Shown piece after piece: positions 5,732 through 49,253 of a stretch of DNA of 64,000 nucleotides (positions within the stretch are counted from its first letter, which is position 1; each line of letters begins with the position of its first letter). The translations under genes and the position numbers were made by a program. Under the pieces are notes generated by a model. That model searched no databases. It saw only the letters and a list, made by a program, of their open reading frames with translations, and was not told the origin of the DNA. This DNA is from an uncultured Candidatus Saccharibacteria bacterium (lineage in GTDB: Bacteria; Patescibacteriota; Minisyncoccia; Minisyncoccales; UBA5738): positions 65,813 through 129,812 of the forward strand of contig CAYYEP010000001.1 in assembly GCA_964470995.1 (NCBI GenBank). Direction: 5' to 3'.

Positions 5732-5766
5732 TGATACTTACCCTGTTACGTAACATGCTACTTACC
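5732..5766. promoter_or_regulatory. operator-like repeats upstream of the AbrB-like gene
   Basis: Two copies of (T/A)TGaTACTTACC-like 12-mers (5732-5743, 5755-5766) flank the palindrome GTTACGTAAC. The same 12-mer is triplicated at 10046-10081. Confidence 0.4.
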
Positions 5767-6256: not shown

Positions 6257-7159
6257 CTAAAATAAGTTAGTCGGCGGCTCTTTCAGATAAGCCTCTATAT
6301 TATCAATCATCATATCATTGGCAATCCGGGCGGTAACATCGGTGTTAAACGCAATATGCGGCGTCGCCAATATTCTACCGCTTGTTAAAAGTTTCTGATA
6401 AAAATCATCACTCGCATCACCAACCCGGGCATCGCCCGCATCAATGGCCGCACCTGAAATATTTTTCCCCAAGCAAAATAATAATGCATCAATATCGTAT
6501 ATTTTCGAACTCGTGACTGAAATAAAATAGGTTCCGGTATTGAGCGATGCAAAAAATTTCTCATTAAGCATCCCAACCGTTGTCGGGTTTTGACTTAGGC
6601 AGTTAATCACGATATCCGCACCCTTGGCGCTTTCCATAATATTATCGCCCTGCCTGAAAAAAATAACATCCATGCCGAATACGTCACAAATTTTTCCAAC
6701 CTTGGATCCGATATTACCTACCCCCAATATGCAAACCTTTTTTCCAGCCAATCCAAGAGTACGTCTCGGCAAATTGTATTTCGCTTGCTTCACCGAATTT
6801 ATTTGCTTTGGCAAATCTCGCAGCAGATTTATCATCATGCCGATTATCCATTCCGATACCGCATCTTTATTGCAGCCCGGTGAATTCGCGACCTTGATAT
6901 TTTTGGCTCTCAATTTCTCCGCGTCCATCCAACCGATGCCAACGAGCGGCAATGAAATAAAAACATTTTCCAACTCATAAATTTTTTGCCGCAGGCCAAA
7001 GCTGCCCGTGCAAATAATATCAAAACCCCGGCATCTATCAAGCCAACCCTCAGGCGATTCCGCCGCATCATTATAAATCTTCACTTCACCCAAATTATTT
7101 AACCGTTCAATTTGGTCCGGTAACAAATCCAATCCTTGCGCAATCACAATTCTATTCAT
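6257..7159 (-). CDS. D-isomer-specific 2-hydroxyacid dehydrogenase family protein
   Basis: NAD-binding GLAGKKVCILGVGNIGSKVG and a C-terminal catalytic-domain pattern (ATPHIAF). Confidence 0.75.
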   Translation of the reverse strand: MNRIVIAQGLDLLPDQIERLNNLGEVKIYNDAAESPEGWLDRCRGFDIICTGSFGLRQKIYELENVFISLPLVGIGWMDAEKLRAKNIKVANSPGCNKDAVSEWIIGMMINLLRDLPKQINSVKQAKYNLPRRTLGLAGKKVCILGVGNIGSKVGKICDVFGMDVIFFRQGDNIMESAKGADIVINCLSQNPTTVGMLNEKFFASLNTGTYFISVTSSKIYDIDALLFCLGKNISGAAIDAGDARVGDASDDFYQKLLTSGRILATPHIAFNTDVTARIANDMMIDNIEAYLKEPPTNLF

Positions 7160-11440: not shown

Positions 11441-11498
11441 GCTGGCCAAGGTCGCACCTTGGCATGCTCGCCGAGGAACGACCTTAAAAAACAAATAC
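11441..11498. repeat. extended-hairpin intergenic repeat, copy 2 of 3
   Basis: AAGGTCGC-A-CCTTGGC-loop-GCCGAGG-A-ACGACCTT-AAAAAACAAATAC. Confidence 0.65.
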
Positions 11499-11518: not shown

Positions 11519-11583
11519 CGGAGGGTGGAGGATGCTTCAAGCTTGCTTTTCGCAAGTTCAAACCTCCGAGGGGCTGTCCCCAA
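11519..11583 (-). pseudogene. orphan 3' fragment of tRNA-Ser (variable arm to discriminator) with an insertion in the T-loop
   Basis: TTGGGGACAGCCCCTC-GGAGG-TTTGAA[CTTGCGAAAAGCAAG]CTTGAAGCAT-CCTCC-ACCCTCC-G. There is no 5' half. Confidence 0.6.
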
Positions 11584-11587
11584 CCTA

Positions 11588-11848
11588 TTTAATTCGTGAA
11601 AAAGCGGAGGGGGCGAGATTCAAACTCGCGGTGGCTTTTGGCCACAACGGTTTTCTTCGCTTTGCTGCGGCGTCAATTTCATTGCGGAGGGTGGAGGATT
11701 CGAACCTCCGAGGAGTTTCCCCCAACTGGTTTTCAAGACCAGCGCTATAGGCCACTCAGCCAACCCTCCGCAATGAAATTGACCAAGACCATCTCCTTTC
11801 CTACTGGTCACAACGCTCAGACACCCCTCCGCTTTTTCACGAATTAAA
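11588..11848 (-). other. outer tRNA-Ser-like unit interrupted by a 129-nt insert that carries the functional tRNA; flanked by an 18-nt perfect inverted repeat
   Basis: 5' part GGAGGGGTG...ATGGTCTTG and 3' part AAAACCGT...GCGAGTTTGAATCTCGC-CCCCTCC-G. Flanks TTTAATTCGTGAAAAAGC (11848-11831) and GCTTTTTCACGAATTAAA (11605-11588). Confidence 0.55.
11685..11769 (-). tRNA. tRNA-Ser (anticodon UGA), no encoded CCA
   Basis: Manual cloverleaf: GGAGGGT/ACCCTCC acceptor, D-loop GAGTGGCCTAT, anticodon arm CTGGT-CTTGAAA-ACCAG, long variable arm, GGAGG-TTCGAAT-CCTCC, G73. Confidence 0.85.
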
Positions 11849-12005
11849 GTTTTCCCCGCCTACGCGGGACTTCCTGCTGGTCGCAAACCAGCGCCATGAC
11901 TCCCTCGATTACGCGGGAACCATCAAAAAAGCACTCAACCAACCATCCCTACTCCATACCGGTTTTACCGGCATGGATACAATTAATCACGCAATACGGT
12001 AAAAA

Positions 12006-14564
12006 TCAAGCTTGTTTTTTCCCGAATAGCAGCCATTTGAACGGTTCAAACCACAGGGCGCCCAGCACGCCTAAGGCCGCGGCCCGGGCAAGATCGGCGG
12101 GCATTACCGGATCAAAATGGAATACCTGGCGCAAGGGCGGGTATAGCAACACCGCAACCAACATCATCAGGGCGGCGGCAAAGACCCAAAGAAATGCTCT
12201 ATTGCCGTTAATAAATACCTTGAACGGATTACCCCAGCTTAAATTGGCGACGATCAAAAACAGGTTGGCAACCAATATCGCAACAAACGACAGGGCGCGG
12301 ATCTGGCCTTCGCTTTGGCCGGAATGGAGAGCGGCCATATAAACAATAAATACCGCCACGAGCACCCCCAATCCCTGCAATAAGCTGGTCCAGAAGGCGC
12401 GGCGGCCAAAAAGAGACCGGCTTAAACGGCGCGGCGGCCGGTTCATAATATTTTTTTCGGCGGGCTCATTTTCGAAAACTACCGAACAAGCCGGGTCGAT
12501 AACCAATTCAAGAAACGCGATATGCGCCGGGAAAAATACTACGGGCAGATTCAACGCTACGGGTAAAAACGACATCCCCGCGATCGGAATATGCACCGCA
12601 AAAATATAGGCGATAGCCTTTTTAATGTTATCGAAGACCGTTCGGCCCATACGAATGGCGCGGACGATCGAAGTGAAATCATCGTTAAGCAGGACAAGGT
12701 CGGCGGTTTCGCGAGCAACATCGGTGCCGCGCTCCCCCATGGCAATACCGATATGGGCGGCTTTGAGCGCCGGGGCGTCATTAACACCATCTCCGGTCAT
12801 GGCAATGGTCATACCCTTATCCTTGAGCGCGTTGATAAGCAACATTTTTTGTTCGGGAACTACACGCGCAAAAACGTTCACGGTGTCCAATTTTTTAACA
12901 AGGTCGGCGCGGGCCATAGACTGGAGTTCCATGCCAGTTAGACATTCGTCCGGATTCTTAAGGCCGATCTGGCGCGCGATCTGGCGCGCGGTGGCGGGAT
13001 AATCGCCGGTGATCATACAAACCCGGACTCCGGCCGTATAACACTCTTTAACGGCCGCCGGAACCGACGGCCGTACCGGATCTTCAAAACCAAGCAGACC
13101 CACGAATTCAAAATCAAAATCATGCTGGCCGCTGGCATTAAGCTTATCTTTGGCAACCCCGGCAACCGCCACCCCCAAAAGCCGCAAGCCATCGGAAAGC
13201 AGCGGTTCCATGCGTTGCATAAGTTTTGTTTTTTCGGGTTCGCCAAGGTGGCATAGTTCGGCGATCGATTCGGGGGCGCCCTTGGCAGCAACCACATAAC
13301 GCCCGCCGTCGCCCGTTTCCCAAACGTGCGAAAGCGCTAAAAGGTTGCCCGAAAAAGGATATTCTTTTATTAATCTCCAATTTGAATGCAAATGGCTGGT
13401 TGATTTGAGGAGAAATTCGCCGGTTTTTTTAATTTCTTTTTCCAGCGGGTCGAACGGGTCGGTTTGGCTGGCAAGAATACCGTATTCAAGCAGTTCTTCG
13501 TATTGTTCGGGAATGATATTGCCGCCGGCGCCATAATCATCGACATTTAACGAACCCTCCATTACGGCCAGTTTTTTCAAGCGCATCTGATTAAAAGTGA
13601 TCGTACCGGTTTTGTCGGAACAAAGGATATCGGCGGCGCCCAGCATTTCAATGGCGGCGGTGTTGCGCGTCAAAACTTTTCTTTTTGATATGCGCCAGGC
13701 ACCAATGGTCATAAACAGCAACATTACCACCGGGAATTCTTCGGGCAACATAGACATACTGATCGTCAAACCGTAAAGAACCCCCTGCAACAGATTGCCG
13801 TTGGCCGCAACATAGATCGCGACAGTTGCAATACAAAGACCCAAGCCGATGATGCCGAAAAATTTTGTAAGCCGGGCGGTCTCGGATTTTAAATGAGTCC
13901 CTTCATCGGCAACCGCCTGCAGAGACTTTCCGATCTTGCCCATTTCGGTATTGATACCAGTGGCAACCACTTTGGCAAAGCCGTGTCCCCGGTTTATGAG
14001 CGTCCCGGAATAAATAAACTGCAGATTATCCCCTCCGGGATGATCGCCGGCGATAAGCCGTTTTCCGTCCCAAACCGATTTTGAAACGGCGACCGACTCA
14101 CCGGTAAGTAAAGATTCATCAACCGATAAATTAACCGACTCTAAAACCGCGGCGTCGGCGGCAACGCGGTCGCCTTCGCGCAGGATCATAATATCCCCCG
14201 CCACCACTTCCCGGCCAGCAACGCGTTTTTGCGCGCCGTCGCGGATTACTAACGCCCGGGGACTGGATAAATCGCGCAAAGCTTCAAGGGCGCGTTCGGT
14301 CTTGCGCTGCTGGTAAAAAGTGATGCCCACAATAAAAAAAATGAAAGTGGAAAGTATCAAGGAATCGCTCAATTCTCCCAAGTAAAAATAGATCATCCCG
14401 GCGACAACAAGCAATAAAAGCATAGGCTCTTTAACCACTTCGATCATAATTAAAAAAAGGCCGCGTTTTTTTTGCGACGGCAATTCGTTATAGCCGTCTT
14501 TTACCAGCCGCTCCCGGGCTTGTTTGGAGGTAAGCCCTTCAATCATTTTGGGATCGTTAAACAT
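12006..14564 (-). CDS. cation-transporting P-type ATPase (P2-type, Ca2+/Mg2+-like)
   Basis: 852 aa with DKTGTITFN phosphorylation site, TGESVAV, MITGDYPATA and TGDGVNDAPALK. Confidence 0.9.
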   Translation of the reverse strand: MFNDPKMIEGLTSKQARERLVKDGYNELPSQKKRGLFLIMIEVVKEPMLLLLVVAGMIYFYLGELSDSLILSTFIFFIVGITFYQQRKTERALEALRDLSSPRALVIRDGAQKRVAGREVVAGDIMILREGDRVAADAAVLESVNLSVDESLLTGESVAVSKSVWDGKRLIAGDHPGGDNLQFIYSGTLINRGHGFAKVVATGINTEMGKIGKSLQAVADEGTHLKSETARLTKFFGIIGLGLCIATVAIYVAANGNLLQGVLYGLTISMSMLPEEFPVVMLLFMTIGAWRISKRKVLTRNTAAIEMLGAADILCSDKTGTITFNQMRLKKLAVMEGSLNVDDYGAGGNIIPEQYEELLEYGILASQTDPFDPLEKEIKKTGEFLLKSTSHLHSNWRLIKEYPFSGNLLALSHVWETGDGGRYVVAAKGAPESIAELCHLGEPEKTKLMQRMEPLLSDGLRLLGVAVAGVAKDKLNASGQHDFDFEFVGLLGFEDPVRPSVPAAVKECYTAGVRVCMITGDYPATARQIARQIGLKNPDECLTGMELQSMARADLVKKLDTVNVFARVVPEQKMLLINALKDKGMTIAMTGDGVNDAPALKAAHIGIAMGERGTDVARETADLVLLNDDFTSIVRAIRMGRTVFDNIKKAIAYIFAVHIPIAGMSFLPVALNLPVVFFPAHIAFLELVIDPACSVVFENEPAEKNIMNRPPRRLSRSLFGRRAFWTSLLQGLGVLVAVFIVYMAALHSGQSEGQIRALSFVAILVANLFLIVANLSWGNPFKVFINGNRAFLWVFAAALMMLVAVLLYPPLRQVFHFDPVMPADLARAAALGVLGALWFEPFKWLLFGKKQA

Positions 14565-14783: not shown

Positions 14784-16700
14784 ATGACAAAAGTTTTTTC
14801 GGCAGCTTTGGCGGCAATGGCGTTAACCGCTTTGGGTTCGATAATAATCATCGGCGCGCTGGATAGCGGCCAGATGCCGCCATCGGTGACGATCGGCGGC
14901 CAACCGGGTGAAAATTTAACCGGCGATTCCCAGACGGGGATCAATAACGGCGATCTGTCCGCGAGCAGCACCACCGGAATAACCGATTTTCCGGAAAATT
15001 CCGGCACGATCGACGACTGGAACACCGAGACCGCTGGAATGAACGAGGGAATTGTTACTAATTCTTCGACGGGCGGCAGCGGAAGCTGGAATTTTACGGG
15101 AACAGATAGCGGAGGCGGCCGAACGGCAGGATCGGCGAAAATGGCGGCGCCTTCGGCAACCATGTATATGGCAGAGTCGGATTCAATCGGCTTGGCGACG
15201 GGCGGGGCGAAAGATACCAATAATTTCCGGGAGAACATCAAAAATGGGTATCTGCCGCTGGAGACCGACATTACCTATGAAGGCCTCTATTACAATTATT
15301 ATTTTGATACCGGCAAAGCGCAGGCGTGCGAGAAACTTTTTTGCCCTTCCTACAGCAAGGCGGTCAGCAAAGATCCATTCTCGGGAAAGGATGAATATTT
15401 CCTTACCGTAGGATTGAATTCGGGCATCAAGGAAAGCGATTTTGACCGTAAAAAACTGAATCTGGTGGTGGTAATGGACATATCCGGATCAATGGGCTCA
15501 CCTTTTAATCAATATTATTACGACCAGTTCGGCAACTACCAGACCCCAAATGCCGAGGAACAACAAGAAATGTCTAAAACAAAAATGCGCGTTGCCACCG
15601 AATCATTGGTGGCAATGACCAAGCATCTGCGGAGCGATGACCGCTTCGGCGTAGTATTGTTCGACGACTACGCTTACACAGCCAAACCGCTGTCTTTGGT
15701 GGGCAAAACCGATATGGACAAGATACGCGGACATATTCTGGATATCAGCGAGCAAGGAGGCACAAATATGGAATCCGGGATAAATGAAGGAACCTCGCTT
15801 TTCAAAGAATTAAAAGAAGCCAATCAAAACGAATACGAAAACAGGATAATCTTCATTACCGACGCCCAGCCCAATATGGGCGGCACTTCCCAGGGAGGCT
15901 TTATGAACCTGGTACAACAAAATGACGGCGATAAAATTTATATGACATTTATTGGCGTGGGCGTTGATTTTAACACCGAACTGATCGAGTCGATAACCAA
16001 AGTGCGAGGCGCCAATTATTATTCGGTTCATTCAAGCCAGGAATTCGCAAAACGAATGGACGACGAATTCAATTATATGGTCACGCCGCTGGTGTTTAAC
16101 CTTAAGCTGAACATGAAGTCGAGCGGGTTTGAAATAATGAAAGTATACGGTTCACCGGAAGCCGATACGGCCACCGGTGAATTGATGAAGGTTTCCACGC
16201 TTTTTGCCTCCGCGACTTCCGAAGAGGGCACTAAAGGCGGGATTGTACTACTGCATCTTAAAAAAATAAACGACAATGCCACAATCACTTTATCGACAAG
16301 CTACGAAGACCGCAAGGGCGTTGCCGGAGGAGACACTTCAACAATAACTTTCGGCGGCCAAAGTGCGGAGTATTTTGAAAACACCGGCATTCGAAAAGGA
16401 ATACTGCTGGCGCGCTACGGCAATATGATAAAGGACTGGATATATGATGAGCGCGGCCACGCAAATTATACCGCCCAAACCTGGGAACCCAGAATCAATT
16501 ATACCGATGGTATTTACTGCCCTCCCCCGGTTTGGCCGAATTTGGGCCAGTGGGAACGCCAGTCGATGCGCCTGCAGGTATCCAGCGCCTATAAAAAATT
16601 GTTTGGTATATTTAAGACATACTTTGACGGTGAGATCAAGACGATCGGCGACGAAGACCTGCGGCAAGAATCCGATATTCTGGAAAAACTTAGCCGGTGA
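14784..16700 (+). CDS. von Willebrand factor type A domain protein (exported)
   Basis: N-terminal signal/TM sequence. MIDAS VVVMDISGSMG. Large C-terminal extension. Confidence 0.8.
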   Translation: MTKVFSAALAAMALTALGSIIIIGALDSGQMPPSVTIGGQPGENLTGDSQTGINNGDLSASSTTGITDFPENSGTIDDWNTETAGMNEGIVTNSSTGGSGSWNFTGTDSGGGRTAGSAKMAAPSATMYMAESDSIGLATGGAKDTNNFRENIKNGYLPLETDITYEGLYYNYYFDTGKAQACEKLFCPSYSKAVSKDPFSGKDEYFLTVGLNSGIKESDFDRKKLNLVVVMDISGSMGSPFNQYYYDQFGNYQTPNAEEQQEMSKTKMRVATESLVAMTKHLRSDDRFGVVLFDDYAYTAKPLSLVGKTDMDKIRGHILDISEQGGTNMESGINEGTSLFKELKEANQNEYENRIIFITDAQPNMGGTSQGGFMNLVQQNDGDKIYMTFIGVGVDFNTELIESITKVRGANYYSVHSSQEFAKRMDDEFNYMVTPLVFNLKLNMKSSGFEIMKVYGSPEADTATGELMKVSTLFASATSEEGTKGGIVLLHLKKINDNATITLSTSYEDRKGVAGGDTSTITFGGQSAEYFENTGIRKGILLARYGNMIKDWIYDERGHANYTAQTWEPRINYTDGIYCPPPVWPNLGQWERQSMRLQVSSAYKKLFGIFKTYFDGEIKTIGDEDLRQESDILEKLSR

Positions 16701-16745
16701 TCTGCATAGCCTCCATCCGGGGCTTCCCGGATGTATCAAAAAAAC

Positions 16746-16770
16746 AAAAATTCCCTTACAGGAATTTTTT
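16746..16770 (+). terminator. rho-independent terminator after the vWA gene
   Basis: AAAAATTCC-cttaca-GGAATTTTTT. Confidence 0.7.
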
Positions 16771-16801
16771 GTTTAGATGCAATAATTAGAGCGACAAAAT
16801 G

Positions 16802-16980
16802 AATCTCCCCGGGGACAAACGCGACGGGATCTAGGTTGAACCGCCTTCCGCTTTGTTCCAGGCGTCCCCCGCATACTGCGAGGGAAAATTTTCATCCCCC
16901 CCGCTTCCTCCCGATTACGGGAGGCGCCCCGCCGCAGTCGCGGCGGAAAACGCGCGGGGTATTAAGATTTGTTCAATAAA
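16802..16980. repeat. GC-rich multi-hairpin intergenic repeat, copy A (full length, ~179 nt)
   Basis: Near-identical to 34532-34705; the last 83 nt are identical. Contains hairpins CCTCCCG-ATTA-CGGGAGG and CCGCCGC-AGTC-GCGGCGG enclosed by CCCCGC/GCGGGG. Confidence 0.8.
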
Positions 16981-17034
16981 TAAAATTAAAGAGGTTGAAG
17001 CATTATATCCCGAAGGATTGCCCAACCTCTAAAT

Positions 17035-17250
17035 TTAAAATGGCCACCATTTTCTTTTTGGTTTTGCGGGCGGAAAAGTTTCAAGAGCGGCTTGTCTGCT
17101 TCTCCCGCAACCACCGCAATAATTCTTATAGCCATACATCTCCTGCCCGCACCAATTGCACAGCGGCACAGGGATGGATTCTACTCCGCAACTGGGGCAA
17201 AACCCAGCGCTAGTAGGGTTTCCACATTTCGGGCACATTTTTCCACGCAT
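17035..17250 (-). CDS. double zinc-ribbon small protein
   Basis: CPKCGN...CPSCG...CNWCG...CGGCG. Confidence 0.6.
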   Translation of the reverse strand: MRGKMCPKCGNPTSAGFCPSCGVESIPVPLCNWCGQEMYGYKNYCGGCGRSRQAALETFPPAKPKRKWWPF

Positions 17251-17635
17251 TCTTCCACCTCAAATGATTAATATATTGGATGTATATTATTTTGTTTAGG
17301 TTTGTCAAGATTTCCAAGTTTTGCTAAATCAGTTAACCTTTTCTATCTTGGAGTTGGCATAATAAGTTGTTGTTTGCCCAATCCACTTAAAATGTAATGA
17401 AAAATATGGCTGGATTTGATATTTTTTCTCGCGAAAAAAAGCGTCTTTAAGGTTGTTGCCACCAATTCAATAATAAAAATCAAGGAAAATTATCTCAATT
17501 AAGCGTTTAATTTCAGTCGTAAGATAAGCGCACAATAACGCACGATAGGCATTTTGATAGTCTGTATATATAAATTGCAACCTTTTTTTGTACCCAAAAC
17601 CGACCGACAAATTGAACGGCCAAAAGCTCGATTTT

Positions 17636-17664
17636 GAATTGAAAACACCGTTTGACACGGTGTT
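17636..17664 (-). terminator. putative native terminator of tRNA-Ser(GCU), now separated from it by the integrated element
   Basis: Minus sense AACACCG-TGTCAAA-CGGTGTTTTC immediately follows the attL core. Confidence 0.5.
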
Positions 17665-17672
17665 CAGCGAAA

Positions 17673-17856
17673 GGCGGTGTTTTTTGGACGAAGTTCGAAC
17701 ATTTTTTGAGCAAAACTCCGAATGATTGCGCGCTTCGCGCGCAAAACCGAAACGCTCGGGCGGGCAAAAAGGAAGGGAGTTGGGGGGAAGGAATTTTTGC
17801 CCGCCCTCGCTTTCCGCCGCCGCCGAATTTCGTGCCAACAAAGTTGGCGCGCCGCC
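17673..17856 (+). repeat. inverted repeat IR1-left (P' arm of the att site), ~180 bp, highly structured
   Basis: Reverse complement of 20092-20276, with 1 substitution and 1 single-base indel across the ~156-nt collinear part and a divergent but still self-pairing distal hairpin. Confidence 0.85.
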
Positions 17857-17864
17857 TTTAATTT

Positions 17865-19730
17865 CTAAACTGTAAACCCAACTAATTTAACTAACAGCCA
17901 CGAAATAATCAAGAATGAAATTGAAAAAACGGGAACAAAAACATATTTCATTTTATCTTTTGGCCGGAATGACCAAGATGAATATCCAGCCAATTTCAAT
18001 TGTTCAAATAGATTTTTATCCTCGGGTTTGATTCTTTTGATTATGAAGCTCACAATTAAAGCAGTAATCGGCAAAACATAAATTATCAAAAGAGGAATGA
18101 TGATATCAGAATCTAAATATCTCAGGGAGTAACTAATTTCGCGGATTAGTGATGACAACGCAAATAAACCGAAAACCAGAAAAGGTATGGCAACGAAAAA
18201 TAAAATTGTAGCAACTCTCCTTTTCCATAAATATCCTTTTTGTTTTATTTCGGCAAGCAGAGGTTCTACGCTTTCATTTTTATTTTTCGTGCCAACCAAT
18301 ACTGTCGTTATCAATAATCCTAAAATTGTTAGAAAATTAGACAAACCAATCAAGCCGAGTTTTACCGGCTTTCTTCTTAAATCCTTGAAAATAATCAAGC
18401 CCGCCAAAATTCCAGCGAGTATTGAACTTAAAATAAACAGGATTATTGCGCTTACTATCGGGTGTTTGGCAATAAAAGTTGAGTAGTAAGTTTTGGCGGG
18501 TGCTTGCGCTTTTAGCCACAAGTCATCAGTGAAGAATTTTGACGGCGCGTTGATTTCTATTTTTGTATATTTAATGTTTTGATTTTGTCCGCTATAAAAG
18601 TTTTTCAAGTCATCGGCAAAACTGGCATAGCTATCAATATAATATTCAGTTTTTGTGTAGCTTTCAATATCTTGAAAAACATTTGGCGTAACATGGCCAA
18701 TTACTCTGATTGTTGCCGGAACTGTTTTGCTACCATAGACGCTTGTCGGAAGAAGTGGAAAATATATTTCTTTCGTGGGGAATGTTACAAATACTCCCTT
18801 TTGGTTAGCTAAGTTCTGATTTTTGTTATAGGTATCTACGATTATTGACGGGTCATTTTGAATAGCTTGCGTTAATTCCTGCAAAACAGTTCCGCCTTGT
18901 TGGGATTTCAAATAATCAGTTGAATTGTTAGCTTGATTAAATTCGGGATATTTTTGTTTTAAGCTATTTACTAAGTCAAAAAATTTTGGATAGCGGTATT
19001 GACTCGAAAAGTAGATATAAAGATTATTTTTTATATCGTCAGCCGAAATGATTTTTTCTGGCGAGCTTATCCATGAAGCGACAAAAGAAAATTCTTTGCC
19101 GATATAATTATCCAAAACTGGAATCGAGCCACTTTCAATTTTTAACCCCTTATTTTTCAAATAATCGTAGAGTCCGTTGGCTGTTTTTGCAGTAATTATT
19201 TCTGATGAAATTCCTTCTTTGTCTAAATGTTCGTAAACAACAACATCCGGTACAATTCCCTTACCGATTCCTTGTGGTGCTGCACCCAAAGCATTATCCA
19301 TGCCTCTGCCCGCCGAGAGAGTCCCATAAAAAGAAACAAAAGGAATTGTATAAAGTTGCGTCATTTGTAAAAACTTCGTTGTATCGTCAAGATTTGATTT
19401 CGCTTTTCTTGAAACTTCTTCACCGCTTAATCCGGGCAGACTTTTTACTACATCAATAGCAACTTTATTCGGATCGGCAGGAACGGGGAAAAGCCAAACC
19501 ACTCCTTTGCTGTTTTCTCCTTCAAGTCCAACGCTGATAATCATTTTTTGCAATCCGTTATTATAATTAATAAACGCTTGCTGATTACTTTCATTTGAAT
19601 AATCCCAACGGTCTGAATAAGGATCGGGTTTCATCATCATTCCGTCTGCAAAAACTGACTTTGGAATAAAGGAAGCTATCGCCAAAAATGTAATTAGCGA
19701 TAATGTAATAAATGAGAGTGATTTTTTCAT
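17865..19730 (-). CDS. cargo: large exported protein with a C-terminal 5-TM anchor (possibly DUF2330-like)
   Basis: 621 aa: signal peptide MKKSLSFITLSLITFLAIASF, ~400-aa extracytoplasmic region, five C-terminal hydrophobic helices. AT-rich codon usage. Confidence 0.75.
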   Translation of the reverse strand: MKKSLSFITLSLITFLAIASFIPKSVFADGMMMKPDPYSDRWDYSNESNQQAFINYNNGLQKMIISVGLEGENSKGVVWLFPVPADPNKVAIDVVKSLPGLSGEEVSRKAKSNLDDTTKFLQMTQLYTIPFVSFYGTLSAGRGMDNALGAAPQGIGKGIVPDVVVYEHLDKEGISSEIITAKTANGLYDYLKNKGLKIESGSIPVLDNYIGKEFSFVASWISSPEKIISADDIKNNLYIYFSSQYRYPKFFDLVNSLKQKYPEFNQANNSTDYLKSQQGGTVLQELTQAIQNDPSIIVDTYNKNQNLANQKGVFVTFPTKEIYFPLLPTSVYGSKTVPATIRVIGHVTPNVFQDIESYTKTEYYIDSYASFADDLKNFYSGQNQNIKYTKIEINAPSKFFTDDLWLKAQAPAKTYYSTFIAKHPIVSAIILFILSSILAGILAGLIIFKDLRRKPVKLGLIGLSNFLTILGLLITTVLVGTKNKNESVEPLLAEIKQKGYLWKRRVATILFFVAIPFLVFGLFALSSLIREISYSLRYLDSDIIIPLLIIYVLPITALIVSFIIKRIKPEDKNLFEQLKLAGYSSWSFRPKDKMKYVFVPVFSISFLIISWLLVKLVGFTV

Positions 19731-19745
19731 AATTTTATTTTACGA

Positions 19746-19943
19746 TTATTTTATTAACTCATCAACGCTAACCTCAAGAGCTTTCGCGATTTTCTTGAGG
19801 GTATCCAGCGTTGGATTCTGGTTTTTACCAGCTTCAATTTTGATAATTGTATTATTGGCGACATCGGCCAATCTCGCCAACTTTTCTTGGGAAAGCCCTT
19901 TGGCTTCCCTTAACCTTCTTAAATTTTTAGTAATGTTTGACAT
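19746..19943 (-). CDS. cargo: XRE-family helix-turn-helix transcriptional regulator
   Basis: LRRLREAKGLSQEKLARLADVANNTIIKIEAGKNQNPTLDTLKKIAKALEVSVDEL. Confidence 0.85.
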   Translation of the reverse strand: MSNITKNLRRLREAKGLSQEKLARLADVANNTIIKIEAGKNQNPTLDTLKKIAKALEVSVDELIK

Positions 19944-20091
19944 AACTTATATCTTAGTAGTAGAATTAAAGTATTAGGATATATTTCCTTTCAACTACTA
20001 TAATGCTACACCAAAAATTAAGAAAAGTAAATAATGGGAGAAAAATTGTTGTGTGCGCACGGGTGGGTGGGGCAAACACAACTCCATTTTT

Positions 20092-20276
20092 GGCGGCGCA
20101 TTTTGCAAAGCAAAATACGAAATTCGGCGGCGGCGGAAAGCGAGGGCGGGCAAAAATTCCTTCCCCCAACCCCCTTCCTTTTTGCCCGCCCGAGCGTTTC
20201 GGTTTTGCGCGCGAAGCGCGCAATCATTCGGAGTTTTGCTCAAAAAATGTTCGAACTTCGTCCAAAAAACACCGCC
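20092..20276 (-). repeat. inverted repeat IR1-right (inverted P' arm)
   Basis: See 17673-17856. Core CCGCC at 20272-20276. Confidence 0.85.
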
Positions 20277-20404
20277 AATTTTCACTTTTTGTGAAATCGT
20301 AAGAAACTGCCTCGGCACAAAGCGCCTCGGCATGGTATTTTTCCGCAATTTTGAAAGCATTTTTGAAATCCAAAACCAAAGTGCGGTCGGTAATGCGGAA
20401 GTTC
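20277..20404 (-). repeat. inverted repeat IR2-left: inverted copy of the last 128 nt of the recombinase P arm
   Basis: 100% identical to the reverse complement of 21890-22017. Together with 20092-20276 it forms a complete inverted attP-like junction (ORF 20224..20439 = ...NFRITDRTLVLDF...SENWR+CFLDEVRTFFEQNSE*). Confidence 0.85.
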
Positions 20405-20519
20405 GCCGTGCAAAGCACGGGCAAAATGAAATTTTGCAAACCAATCTTTTTTCTTTCGCTTTCAGCGAAAGGTTGAGCGTATTTTTCTTTGATTGCCCAA
20501 AAACTAATTTCAAAACAAT

Positions 20520-22247
20520 ATGGACAACATAAATTTACAAACCAAAAAGATTTTTCTCTATGCTCGTAAATCCACGGACGAGCCAGAGCGACAAATTCTT
20601 TCCATTGAAGCGCAACTTTTTGAATTACGAGAATTTGCCAAAAAGGAAGGATTAAATATCGTCCGTGAATTCGTGGAGAGCAAAACCGCCAAAGAGCCGG
20701 GCAGAGAGATTTTTAACAAAATGGTGGCAAGCATAGAGAAAAATGAAGCCGAAGGAATTTTAGCGTGGCACCCTGACCGCTTAGCTCGAAATAGCATAGA
20801 CGGCGGACGGATAATCTATCTCGTAGATACTGGGAAGATTACCACGCTAAAATTTCCAACTTTTTGGTTTGATCCGACACCGCAGGGAAAATTTATGTTG
20901 TCCATTGCTTTTGGGCAATCAAAATATTATGTGGATAATCTTTCGGAAAATATAAAGAGGGGTATTCGCCAGAAATTGCGAAATGGAATATGGCCCGCTT
21001 GGGCGCCACTTGGCTATATAAACGGCAAAAACGCCCGCTGTATCGCCGTGGACAAAGAAAAGGCAAAGTATATCAAGCGGGCTTTTGAAATGTATGCAAC
21101 TGGCGAATACCCCCTCGCTCAAATCCGAAAGATTATCAATTCCTTGGGCTTGGTTGGCAAGAAAGGCAAAATGCTTTCCGTTTCAAATTATCAGTATATG
21201 CTGAAAAATAAAATCTATTACGGAATGATTGAGTATAACGGCGAAATGTATGACGGAAAGCATGAACCGATTATCACAAAGAAACTTTTTGATTCCGTTC
21301 AAGAAGTGATGGTGAGAAAGTCCAAACCGAAAACGCCAAAATTGAAACCGTATGTGTACAGAGGATTTTTCCGTTGCGGAGAGTGCGGTTGTTTCATTAC
21401 CACCGAAACGCAAAAAGGACATAACTATTTGCGTTGTACCAAACGGAAAAATCCTTGCACGCAAAGATATGTTCGCGAAGAAATCATCACTTCTCAAATA
21501 AAGGAGGAAATCAAAAAAGTTTCTTTGTCTTCCGTTTGGGCAAACGCTTCAATCAATTATTTTGAAAATGAAAAAATGAAAATTGCCCAAACGGAAAGCT
21601 CTTTCGCCCAAAAAGCGAGAAATGAGCTTGTGGAGATAGAAACAAAGCTTGATCGTTTGCTTGATTTACAACTAGACGGCAATTTGTCGCAAGTGGAATA
21701 TACCACCAAAAAGCACAAACTCATTCTCGCTAAAAAAGATTTGGAAGAAAAAATCACCGCTTTTGGGCGAAAGAGCAATAATCGGTTCGAACTTGCCATT
21801 GCCTTTCTAAAAGACGCCAACCAAGCCGAAAAATACGCTCAACAAGAAAATCCCGAAAGGATTCGGGATTTTCTCAAAAAGATTGGTTCGAACTTCCGCA
21901 TTACCGACCGCACTTTGGTTTTGGATTTCAAAAATGCTTTCAAAATTGCGGAAAAATACCATGCCGAGGCGCTTTGTGCCGAGGCAGTTTCTTACGATTT
22001 CACAAAAAGTGAAAATTGGCGGAGGGGGCGGGATTCGAACCCACGGACGGCTTTAAGACCGTCAGAGGTTAGCAACCTCTTGCAATGCCGCTATGCGACC
22101 CCTCCACAGATTGATCTGCGATCAAATTGCAAATTCCAAACCCTAAGCACCAATTATCAAGATAATACAAAACGACATTCCAATAATAACGTTAAAGACC
22201 GCTTTGGTCAATCTCAACCCCGAAGAGCGCCTGCGTATTCCCCGTAG
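20520..22247 (+). CDS. large serine recombinase (integrase)
   Basis: N-terminal resolvase domain (IFLYARKSTDEPERQILSIEAQ), recombinase domain, Zn-ribbon CGECGC...CTKRKNPC, coiled-coil region. The ORF runs through tRNA-Ser and stops only at 22247. Confidence 0.85.
   Translation: MDNINLQTKKIFLYARKSTDEPERQILSIEAQLFELREFAKKEGLNIVREFVESKTAKEPGREIFNKMVASIEKNEAEGILAWHPDRLARNSIDGGRIIYLVDTGKITTLKFPTFWFDPTPQGKFMLSIAFGQSKYYVDNLSENIKRGIRQKLRNGIWPAWAPLGYINGKNARCIAVDKEKAKYIKRAFEMYATGEYPLAQIRKIINSLGLVGKKGKMLSVSNYQYMLKNKIYYGMIEYNGEMYDGKHEPIITKKLFDSVQEVMVRKSKPKTPKLKPYVYRGFFRCGECGCFITTETQKGHNYLRCTKRKNPCTQRYVREEIITSQIKEEIKKVSLSSVWANASINYFENEKMKIAQTESSFAQKARNELVEIETKLDRLLDLQLDGNLSQVEYTTKKHKLILAKKDLEEKITAFGRKSNNRFELAIAFLKDANQAEKYAQQENPERIRDFLKKIGSNFRITDRTLVLDFKNAFKIAEKYHAEALCAEAVSYDFTKSENWRRGRDSNPRTALRPSEVSNLLQCRYATPPQIDLRSNCKFQTLSTNYQDNTKRHSNNNVKDRFGQSQPRRAPAYSP
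22017..22105 (-). tRNA. tRNA-Ser (anticodon GCU), CCA encoded
   Basis: GGAGGGG-TC-GCA-TAGCGGCAT-TGC-A-AGAGG-TTGCTAA-CCTCT-long variable arm-GTGGG-TTCGAAT-CCCGC-CCCCTCC-G-CCA. Confidence 0.85.
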
Positions 22248-23079
22248 CGGCAGCTATAACCGTTTCGACGGGTTCATTACGGATCTGCGCCACGCGTTGG
22301 GCGACATTCACCACATATCGCGGCTCGTTGCGCTTTATTTGGGACAACGGCCCGCCGGAGGCGATATCCGCTAAGGGCGGCAAAAGATAGGGGCAATCGG
22401 TTTCCAGCAAAATTCTATCGAGAGGCATTCGAGCGATCGCGTCGTTGATGTCGCGCTTAAAGATGATGCCGTTCAGCCCGAAATAAAACCCGAGATCGTA
22501 ATACCGCGCCGCGTCGGCGGCAGTGCCGGTGAAACAGTGCACCGCTCCCCTGACCGGGCCGTTGGCTTTAGCTTCGTTTTCCAGAATCGCAATAATATCT
22601 TCGTGAGCCAGGCGCGAATGGATAATAACCGGCAAATCAAGTTCTCGCGCCAGCGCCAACTGGCGGCAAAAAACTTTTTTTTGTTTGGTTTTTATCGCAC
22701 CGGATTTTTCTTTGTCTTTGGGAAGGCGCAAATAATCCAGACCGATCTCTCCGATAGCCACAACCTTATCCGAGGAGCGCGCCAGCCTGCGATAGGCATC
22801 GGCGTTGAAATCGGTTTCGGGAATATTTTCAGGGATACAATGGTCGCGGTTTTGCGGCGCGCCAACCAAAATATTCTCCGGGTGCAGGCCGATAGCAGCC
22901 CAAAGCCCTCGGCCGTACTCGCGAGCGATCGCCACCGCCCGCTCGGAAGACGGATAATTAACCCCAATATTGATCACGAAAACTCCCCTTTCGAGGGAGT
23001 CGGCGGCGACTTGGCGCCAATCGTCGGCAAATTCTTTGAGGTTAAGATGAGCGTGGGTATCAAATATTTGCGGCAACAT
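22192..23079 (-). CDS. TatD-family metal-dependent hydrolase/DNase
   Basis: MLPQIFDTHAHLN start motif (start moved to ATG 23079) and the family-wide pattern through GAVHCFTG and ETDCPYL. Confidence 0.8.
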   Translation of the reverse strand: MLPQIFDTHAHLNLKEFADDWRQVAADSLERGVFVINIGVNYPSSERAVAIAREYGRGLWAAIGLHPENILVGAPQNRDHCIPENIPETDFNADAYRRLARSSDKVVAIGEIGLDYLRLPKDKEKSGAIKTKQKKVFCRQLALARELDLPVIIHSRLAHEDIIAILENEAKANGPVRGAVHCFTGTAADAARYYDLGFYFGLNGIIFKRDINDAIARMPLDRILLETDCPYLLPPLADIASGGPLSQIKRNEPRYVVNVAQRVAQIRNEPVETVIAAATGNTQALFGVEIDQSGL

Positions 23080-48262: not shown

Positions 48263-48727
48263 ATGAAGGTATTCGCCGAAAACAGAAAAGCGAGTTACAA
48301 CTACGAGATCATCGAAAGATTCGAGGCCGGAGTGATGTTAAACGGCCAGGAAGCCAAATCGATCAAAACCCGGGGATTATCCCTGACAGGCTCCTATGTA
48401 ATCGTCAAACCGGACGGGGTTTTTTGGTTTGGCGCCAAAATCCACCCCTATCAGCCGGCCAACGCGGGCGCGGATTACCACGAAGAACGGGACCGCAAGC
48501 TTTTATTGCATAAATCCGAGATTCAGCGTTTAGCCGGAATCGCTTCCCAAAAAGGCTTGACTTTTGTGCCTCTTCGGTTATATACTAAAGAGCATTATGA
48601 AGGCTCCGGCAAAGTGAAGCTGGAGTTTGGAGTTTGCCGTGGCAAAAAAAAATTCGACAAGCGCGAATCAATCAAGAAACGCGACATTGACCGCGAAATT
48701 AAACGGGCGTACGGGAAATACGTTTAA
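48263..48727 (+). CDS. smpB: SsrA-binding protein SmpB
   Basis: ENRKASYNYEIIERFEAGVMLNGQEAKSIK. tmRNA follows 100 nt downstream. Confidence 0.92.
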   Translation: MKVFAENRKASYNYEIIERFEAGVMLNGQEAKSIKTRGLSLTGSYVIVKPDGVFWFGAKIHPYQPANAGADYHEERDRKLLLHKSEIQRLAGIASQKGLTFVPLRLYTKEHYEGSGKVKLEFGVCRGKKKFDKRESIKKRDIDREIKRAYGKYV

Positions 48728-48826
48728 TTTCGAGTGATTTATGAATCGCAATTTAAGGTTTATGAATAAATTTAAATTCGTATTTATTCATAAATCATGA
48801 ATTGTAAATCATGATTCGTTGTTTTT

Positions 48827-49189
48827 GGGGATGTAAGGCTTCGATGGTTTATCGGCCAACCGGCCGCAAGCCAAGTTGCTAAATCTTGTAAAAATTAGCG
48901 AAAATCAAAAGTGCCAAATCGAATACATTCGCTTTTAGCGCTCCGGAATTAGTTTACGCCTAGTAGACTGCCGGTGTCCGGCAGACGGATTCTCCATTAA
49001 ATTTGCCGGGCATAACCTTTTGGAGATAGATGGTTCTCCCCTGCCCCAGGGAATCATTGAAAACAAAACGGGCAAAGGACTTGGAGTTTTTGTCGGATTT
49101 CTTATTCCAGGCCCCAAACAAACCCGACTAAGCTTGTAGAAACCGCTTGACTGGTTTCCCAGATACGGGTTCAAGTCCCGCCGTCTCCA
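48827..49189 (+). ncRNA. ssrA: tmRNA (SsrA)
   Basis: 5' GGGGATGTAAGGCTTCGA and 3' GGGTTCAAGTCCCGCCGTCTCCA form a tRNA-Ala-like domain with G3:U70. Tag ORF ...AKSNTFAFSAPELVYA ends in TAG TAG (48998-49003). CCA is not encoded. Confidence 0.9.
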
Positions 49190-49253
49190 CATAATTTTGC
49201 AAATCAAAATTCCATTTAATAACTGATAGTTTATCAGTCAAATAGAAAAAGGA

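Follow-up and report, generated by a model that had tools for sequence, protein, structure and literature searches.

The stretch analysed here (64 kb of contig CAYYEP010000001.1, from an uncultured Candidatus Saccharibacteria bacterium; hereafter the window) carries on its minus strand a nest of tRNA-Ser(UGA) sequences, in which one complete gene is enclosed by the two halves of a second, defective one. All features of the nest given below lie on this strand, and fetched comparison loci are designated by L-numbers. The enclosed gene is a canonical 85-nt tRNA-Ser(UGA), referred to as type A (11685–11769). Rfam scored it at 59.3 bits against RF00005 (11684/5–11769; gathering score 29) and ARAGORN agreed; it is the only tRNA that either program calls in the region. 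Its sequence differs from that of the outer unit, type B, and is invariant across three assemblies. No other canonical tRNA-Ser(UGA) was detected at the locus, and the inner gene is taken to be the working tRNA.

The gene is flanked by a 14-nt leader arm, IR14 (gtcaatttcattgc, 11770–11783), and a trailer arm, IR14′ (gcaatgaaattgac, 11672–11685), whose first base is G73 and which pairs with the leader at 14/14 Watson–Crick positions. With the acceptor strands included, the repeat finder returned 21 nt of 100% complementarity (11672–11692/11763–11783). A 17-nt tail follows (gccgcagcaaagcgaag, 11655–11671, as defined by the insert boundaries), which has no other match within the window. Removal of the resulting 129-nt insert (11783–11655) restores the anticodon arm ATGGT-CTTGAAA-ACCGT. 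The junction is ambiguous by one G and falls at position 34/35 or 35/36 of the anticodon loop; IR14 starts exactly at it.

The type-B unit consists of a 5′ half (11784–11830), which ends with the anticodon-loop sequence CTTG and still contains the remains of a D-loop insert of about 40 nt, and a 3′ half (11605–11654), which runs from the anticodon-loop AAA to G73. It is bracketed in turn by an 18-nt leader arm, IR18 (tttaattcgtgaaaaagc, 11831–11848), identical in the three assemblies, and the corresponding trailer arm, IR18′ (gctttttcacgaattaaa, 11588–11605). Here the repeat finder returned 25 nt of 100% complementarity (11588–11612/11824–11848). The acceptor stems thus reach 21 contiguous bp in the inner unit and 25 in the outer. 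An earlier note, made from the letters of the stretch, had described the inner tRNA with perfect 14-nt flanks and a 21-bp stem, the rebuilding of the outer anticodon arm on removal of 129 nt, and the exact 18-nt complements that give a 25-bp outer stem. The repeat finder, ARAGORN and Rfam bear out this description, to which the one-G ambiguity of the junction is added.

The nest is real and reproducible. Locus L136 (Logan SRR8925774) is 100% identical to the window over 800 nt, nest included. A sister strain from another sequencing run, L081 (Logan SRR10769896), is 97% identical to the window and has the same nest, surrounded by substitutions and indels of its own. Zero differences between the window and L081 were found in the 129-nt insert and all four arms.

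The old resident gene and older remnants

An uninterrupted tRNA-Ser(tga) directly follows the ATPase gene in L001 and L002, in which the ATPase is 74% and 67% identical, respectively, to that of the window, and in L137, in which a 198-aa neighbour protein is 77% identical. The outer halves match this intact gene with 17/17 (5′) and 50/51 (3′) identities. In L137, collinearity with the window extends from the promoter-like site as far as the gene itself and takes in the spacer end ggcggg(g/a)aaaac. Since an orthologous intact gene occupies the same locus in L001, L002 and L137, the outer unit is the old resident gene, split by the insert at 34/35–35/36 of its anticodon loop.

The outer unit carries several defects. 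Compared with the intact orthologue, its D-loop has 15 nt in place of 4 (+11 nt), and position 56 has changed from C to T; the T-loop is TTTGAAT, against TTCGAAT in L081. These defects had been listed in the earlier note and were found much as described. Differences between the sister strains concentrate in the remnants. The outer gene differs by a 28-nt D-loop indel between AGGAAA direct repeats, L081 retaining 28 nt more of the insert in its outer 5′ half, and by the C56T change, which is present in the window only. The upstream segment 11950–11849 differs by two indels (7 and 11 nt) and five substitutions, and the 286 nt downstream by one substitution. Four differences, all C>T or G>A, separate the outer D-loop insert of L081 from an older copy upstream. 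ARAGORN found no tRNA in the spliced outer sequence of either the window or L081, and a tRNA-Ser was found once the D-loop insert was also removed. Rfam searches of the window, L081 and L137 at E ≤ 5 returned nothing besides the inner tRNA. The two type-B halves are by now pseudogene remnants, in which transitions and indels are gathering.

Additional tRNA-Ser-derived fragments, absent from the earlier note, lie upstream at 11950–11849. The outermost, putatively the oldest, is a type-A-like 5′ fragment with acceptor and D-arm sequence (agggatggttggttgagtg, 11932–11950; compare ggagggttggctgagtgg in the inner gene), recognised through its repeat family and hypervariable between the sister strains. 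Next to it lies an older 5′ half-tRNA remnant with its spacer (11849–11907), which includes the hairpin gtcccgcgtaggcgggg and in L081 is without 11 nt. It corresponds to the 5′ half-tRNA with D-loop insert of L137, internally deleted here: 19/19 positions (CGACCAGCAGGAAGTCCCG) are identical to the L137 D-loop insert, and both share the spacer end mentioned above. On the other side of the nest, an old type-A 3′ remnant extends from the variable arm to the 3′ end (11519–11583) and was identified by repeat matches to the live tRNA. The last 18 nt of this orphan fragment are an exact copy of the inner 3′ end, and a 15-nt hairpin (11556–11542) sits in its T-loop, in agreement with what had been noticed previously. 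L001 has a homologous 3′ remnant downstream of its intact gene, likewise with a hairpin at the T-loop position, and the orphan thus predates that split.

The same break was found in other lineages. Seven loci were retrieved when metagenomes were scanned with the type-B 3′ half; four are plain genes, and the other three (L092, L093 and L097) have a 5′ half before an intact gene. These 5′ halves stop at the anticodon-loop (C/T)TTG and are followed by a spacer of about 20 nt, and L137 has the same layout. In the window, too, the layers further out are what is left of one or more earlier rounds, with the break in the same place. The 5′ half-tRNA with its D-loop insert, upstream of the functional gene, was located at 5749–5824 in L137, 556–631 in L092, 7908–7983 in L093 and 983–1057 in L081. 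Its insert of about 40 nt is 80–85% identical between these four loci and forms a small hairpin with tandem G·A internal loops and two compensatory pairs. The hairpin matches no Rfam family, and an nhmmer profile of the 5′ half-tRNA found no additional copies in 1.2 Mb of fetched loci. Matches to the D-loop-insert motif elsewhere were dismissed as chance matches in GC-rich coding DNA. Both the D-loop insert (GGTTG^AAGG) and the anticodon-loop insert (TCTTG^AAAA) are placed at TTG^AA, and this shared site hints at a sequence-specific process.

All of the half-tRNA arrangements could be accounted for by a model of entry followed by trimming. A whole tRNA-Ser unit would enter the anticodon loop of the resident gene, and recombination between the repeated halves would then reduce the nest to one of three products: a gene preceded by a 5′ half, a gene followed by a 3′ remnant, or a clean gene. 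The nest in the window would persist because the incoming tRNA is too divergent for trimming.

Putative transcription signals and leader:trailer helices

A promoter-like site was read at 11981–12009, with TTGATT (12009–12004) and TTAATT (11986–11981) separated by a 17-nt spacer. The TTGATT element overlaps the ATPase stop codon. In alignments, the arrangement TTGATT-N17-TTAATT/TTTAGT is conserved at aligned sites in L001, L002 and L137, with a hairpin after it. In the window this hairpin is ccatgccggtaaaaccggtatgg (11954–11976), and L137 has gccatggc...gccatggc at the same place. The generic sigma-70 scan did not call the site. The motif and the hairpin are probably the promoter and the 5′ stabiliser of the tRNA transcript, and 11981–12009 is the probable start of the whole tRNA-Ser(UGA) transcription unit. 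A T-run after the 3′ remnant (11486–11491), matched by a T-run at the aligned place in L001, is the probable end of the transcript; it was not called by the terminator scan.

Counted outward from the −1:73 pair, Watson–Crick pairs form at 14/14 positions in the inner unit, 18/18 in the outer unit and 13/14 in the intact gene of L137, whose helix comprises 21 bp with one mismatch and is unrelated in sequence to the window arms. Ten other tRNA-Ser genes (including those of L001, L002 and L091–L096 and the tRNA-Ser(GCT) of the window) gave 1–5/14 pairs. In 32 other tRNAs from 0.9 Mb of fetched loci, nest copies excluded, the acceptor stem was extended by at most 1 bp. The earlier statement that leader:trailer duplexes of this length are unexpected for bacterial pre-tRNAs holds. 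The helices of the inner unit, the outer unit and L137 share only the GC beside the tRNA, and when they are compared, 10 of the 21 pairs are changed on both sides and no pair has a one-sided change. CCA or CCG is encoded after G73 in the helix-less L002 and L091–L096. Neither is encoded in the three helix-bearing units, nor in the helix-less L001. Because L137 has a helix of different sequence, the arms can be regarded as a lineage feature of the gene and not as the ends of a particular insert. The helix thus appears to be a recurring property of the tRNA-Ser(UGA) gene in this sub-clade.

RNase III needs a helix of about 21–25 bp. The flank helices reach the two turns or so that an RNase III stalk would call for, with 21 and 25 bp in the window and 21 bp with one mismatch in L137. 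By analogy with known stalks, the arms probably serve in RNase III-type processing. Bacterial RNase P is inhibited when the leader pairs so as to extend the acceptor stem (PMC9433436). The leader:trailer helix is unusual and recurrent, and probably functional.

Origin of the nest and competing explanations

On balance, the locus is probably a layered replace-and-decay scar around one live tRNA-Ser(UGA), an essential gene that would have been replaced from inside, repeatedly. The resident type-B gene was split in its anticodon loop by a 129-bp insert carrying a complete type-A tRNA-Ser(UGA). The stretch of about 480 nt would be transcribed whole from the conserved promoter at the ATPase stop codon, and the long helices would block RNase P until a double-strand-specific nuclease of the RNase III type cuts. 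The helices would act like the leader–trailer stalks of rRNA operons, freeing the live tRNA from a precursor full of half-tRNAs that compete with it. Since the helix-bearing genes do not encode CCA, it would be added post-transcriptionally. As for arrival, the closest logic is that of an integrating element that destroys a host tRNA and brings its own, with subsequent loss of all but the tRNA. The earlier note had proposed a palindromic mobile unit that disrupted and replaced a tRNA-Ser gene. Its disrupt-and-replace part is well supported by the intact resident gene in relatives together with the decaying outer halves, and its mobile-unit part found no such backing in the searches described below.

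Several observations weigh against a replacement scar with functional helices. No integrase, transposase or element body adjoins the nest, and the junctions have no common core repeat, so that an element scenario demands deletions that are not observed. The D-loop insert is conserved across lineages whose intergenic DNA is otherwise unalignable, which exceeds the expectation for a dead remnant. If L137 is read as collinear, the outer 5′ half would have gained its D-loop insert after L137 diverged, and such a secondary gain would demand gene conversion or a second insertion at TTG^AA. When the arms were scrambled in silico, the effect on the shielding of the live tRNA from mispairing with the remnant halves was small and erratic. 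Finally, the arms contain zero G·U pairs, an absence that fits formation of the palindromes at the DNA level at least as well as selection at the RNA level.

The pairing of the arms is the starting point for the rival explanation that they are by-products of DNA metabolism without an RNA role, in which fold-back or template-switch synthesis from the acceptor-stem hairpin copied one flank, while the nest itself would remain a replacement scar. Each of the 32 arm pairs of the window is Watson–Crick, with no G·U, and the one defect in L137 is an A·C mismatch. The distal end of the outer trailer together with the 4 nt after it (AATTAAATAGG) is similar to the trailer of L001 (AATTAAATTGG), to which the L001 leader is not complementary; this suggests that the leader arm is the copy. 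The explanation also draws on two long palindromes on T-arm-like cores just downstream of the tRNA-Ser of L002, and on the window's second tRNA-Ser gene, which has at its border a perfect inverted copy, 134 nt long, of its own trailer. Nevertheless, helices of the same length (14 bp past the acceptor stem) and of unrelated sequence surround a functional gene in two species, which points to maintenance. In addition, the helix-bearing genes are without the encoded CCA that helix-less relatives other than L001 keep, and this looks like a coordinated processing change. An origin of the arms purely as by-products is judged rather unlikely. A fold-back DNA origin and an RNA use of the arms are compatible, the one concerning origin and the other use. 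More doubtful is a self-targeting mobile cassette, that is, a tRNA-Ser(UGA) with palindromic arms that inserts at TTG^AA of resident tRNA-Ser(UGA) anticodon loops and survives by replacing the function it destroyed. It would accommodate at least two separate events at one nucleotide position (type A into type B, and the older event behind the 5′ half-tRNA), both insertions into type-B sequence (D-loop and anticodon loop) at TTG^AA, the exact start of IR14 at the left junction, and a unit of 111–129 nt, within the sizes of palindromic mini-elements. Nevertheless, neither arm has a second copy within the window with up to 2–3 mismatches allowed, no copy came up when viral, phage and plasmid collections were scanned with the arm junctions, and viral scans with both type-B halves gave no match. 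No target-site duplication was seen at the ends, where the inner insert is flanked by cttg and by gccg or aaaa, and the outer unit by aaac and tagg. The cassette reading does not account for the 17-nt tail on the right side, the only arm sequence common to the three helices is the GC beside the tRNA, and no candidate enzyme is adjacent.

An intron-like insert or a composite YrlA-like RNA had also been considered in the earlier note. In such a reading the outer tRNA would be matured by excision of the inner tRNA by RNase P and RNase Z, its halves being held by the 14-bp duplex, or the whole rod would be a stable YrlA-type RNA. The layout of 5′ half, complementary 14-mer, gap, complementary 14-mer and 3′ half is like that of split-tRNA genes, the D-loop insert hairpin is conserved with its two compensatory pairs, and the whole region folds far better than shuffled sequences (z = −8.1). 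Such a low folding energy is, however, a trivial outcome of perfect repeats. The outer D-loop differs by 28 nt between the sister strains, the core of the conserved hairpin is deleted in the window and C56 is lost there, and the outer part as a whole varies between strains by indels of 28, 11 and 7 nt. ARAGORN rejects the spliced product, and after excision of the tRNA the anticodon loop would keep the 14-bp duplex and a further 17 nt. Rfam found no group I or II intron family at the gathering threshold or at E ≤ 5 in an insert of 129 nt, 85 of which are tRNA, and no Y RNA or YrlA match was found at E ≤ 5 in the window, L081 or L137. No bulge–helix–bulge (BHB) motif of the 3-nt/4-bp/3-nt type was seen by eye, no formal motif search having been made; at the 5′ junction CTTG is followed immediately by the helix, and a 17-nt single strand lies on the 3′ side. 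Both forms of a functional composite RNA are very improbable. Least credible of all is a chimera of assembly or amplification, which had been raised earlier as a possible refutation. Palindromes are typical of multiple displacement amplification and assembly errors, and the closest species-level relatives have plain genes. The occurrence of the nest in two further assemblies nevertheless excludes an artefact for practical purposes: three assemblies agree, and the nest is unchanged in the separately sequenced sister strain.

Known insertion systems were also compared with the nest. Scans with the type-A ends gave no match apart from unrelated phage tRNA-Ser(GCU) genes, with the acceptor and T arm in common. 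By eye, the core sites of integron attC do not fit; ends of the IS200/IS605 type were rejected because there is a single hairpin and the ends are not conserved. Junctions of serine or tyrosine recombinases were set aside, also by eye, as the two junctions share no core or dinucleotide, and P-nucleotides from hairpin opening as the inverted sequence is not adjacent to the break.

For the proposed replacement scar, the nearest known logic of arrival is tRNA-dependent lysogeny, in which insertion destroys an essential host tRNA gene without rebuilding it (Guerrero-Bustamante & Hatfull 2024, PMC10865867). The nest resembles it in having a disrupted resident tRNA and an intact replacement. It differs in that there is no phage, integrase or att core, and the insert is only 129 bp; moreover, the break is in the anticodon loop, the replacement tRNA lies between the two halves, and replacement has taken place there more than once. 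Williams reportedly described in 2002 tRNA gene fragments left by integrative elements. Such fragments have been reported again more recently (van der Gulik et al. 2023, PMC9897764). As in those cases, partial copies stand beside an intact gene, and anticodon loops are well known as places of crossover. The fragments described there form direct repeats at either end of an element of many kb, whereas here both halves bracket a complete tRNA within 261 nt and the flanks are inverted.

The helices recall those formed by the leader and trailer of rRNA operons and cut by RNase III (e.g. PMC10250234), in which 5′ and 3′ flanks likewise pair over about 20 bp or more and enclose the mature RNA. Leader–trailer helices are known for 16S and 23S rRNA but not for an individual bacterial tRNA; in the nest the helix continues the acceptor stem by direct stacking, and its cleavage is predicted. 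In positional preference, the closest known parallel is with the group I introns found at 35/36 in tRNA genes of Patescibacteria (Nakagawa et al. 2026, PMC13011429), which share with the nest the phylum and the same or an adjacent anticodon-loop position. In contrast to these, the insert here has no ribozyme core or Rfam intron match, the break follows G35 (or U34, with the junction moved one position), and the host tRNA is decaying, not spliced. Split tRNA genes of Nanoarchaeum equitans were reportedly described by Randau et al. in 2005. Here too a 5′ half is followed by a stretch complementary to the sequence before the 3′ half. The N. equitans genes are archaeal, need a splicing endonuclease and BHB, and have functional halves at separate loci, whereas the halves of the nest are degenerate and its complementary stretches flank another tRNA. 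The nest thus combines known kinds, tRNA fragments at insertion sites and leader–trailer stalks, in a new form.

A wider proposal, tentative and on the whole unlikely, is that tRNA-Ser(UGA) in this clade of the candidate phyla radiation (CPR) is renewed by a sequence-specific process at TTG^AA, which would supply the anticodon loop with entire tRNA units and the D-loop with a structured hairpin. The apparent debris, namely the 14–18-bp leader:trailer helix and the conserved 5′ half-tRNA with its tandem-G·A hairpin, would then be working parts of an rRNA-style maturation of a single tRNA.

As read here, the nest would show an essential single-copy tRNA gene swapped from inside, with a layered record left behind. 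If the helices are processing signals, this would be, to our knowledge, the first bacterial tRNA matured via an rRNA-like double-stranded stalk, and the route would occur in organisms whose set of RNases is reduced. Site-specific insertion, if that is what took place, would mean that CPR bacteria have a hitherto undescribed activity directed at tRNA anticodon loops; group I introns of the same phylum also favour 35/36. Standard tRNA finders detect only the innermost gene, which constitutes an annotation gap, and the tRNA-Ser(UGA) loci of CPR genomes merit a manual check for half-genes.

Neighbouring genes and minor observations

The genomes closest to the window are metagenome-assembled genomes of Saccharibacteria/Patescibacteria, and the chromosome is Saccharibacteria-like (CPR). 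The nest is neighboured by a P-type ATPase gene and an rnk-like gene, without an adjacent recombinase. The window also encodes glycosyltransferases, aminoacyl-tRNA synthetases, and SmpB with tmRNA. A Pfam survey of 37 open reading frames (ORFs) of the window identified housekeeping genes and one large serine recombinase, and among these ORFs no transposase and no other recombinase. This sole recombinase of the window lies 9 kb from the nest, beside the other tRNA-Ser gene. The nest region is ordinary chromosome. Homologues of the 198-aa neighbour protein led to L136 and L137/L138, the remaining loci being without the tRNA. The matches listed for the C-terminus of the ATPase were distant homologues. 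A synteny search via the rnk-like gene gave differently arranged loci only, none with tRNAs. At 48263–49192 of the window, smpB is followed directly by a full-length tmRNA (Rfam 104.6 bits), an ordinary layout in which no intron was detected.

The recombinase gene (20520–22247, plus strand) is part of a segment, 16700–22250, that is an insertion relative to L137 and also contains, in a stretch of 35% GC, a 621-aa ORF without a Pfam match. Two sets of inverted repeats bracket the recombinase and the 621-aa ORF. In one of them (20272–20405/21889–22022; 134 nt, 100%), the start of the right arm falls within the 3′ end of tRNA-Ser(GCT); the other (17673–17833/20117–20276; about 160 nt, 91–96%) ends in a decayed tRNA 3′ end. 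The segment may be invertible. In L137, an 80-aa GIY-YIG protein gene (774–1016) lies between tRNA-Ser(gct) and a VWA gene, at the place where the window has its recombinase-bearing insertion.

Just downstream of the plain tRNA-Ser(UGA) of L002, related palindromes at 6781–6832 (17 bp, perfect) and 6846–6908 (24 bp at 92%) surround T-arm-like cores (ggaggtcaatcctc). L096 has a related motif, cctcggcttgt, upstream of the gene. Short hairpins with the pattern CCCGCG-TAAT/GTAG-CGNGGG (cgcgtaatcgcg-like) were found at 11895–11924 and 11853–11870 of the window, at 1–30 of L141 and at 2716–2753 of L096. Given their intergenic position in different CPR contigs, these hairpins may represent a small repeat family.

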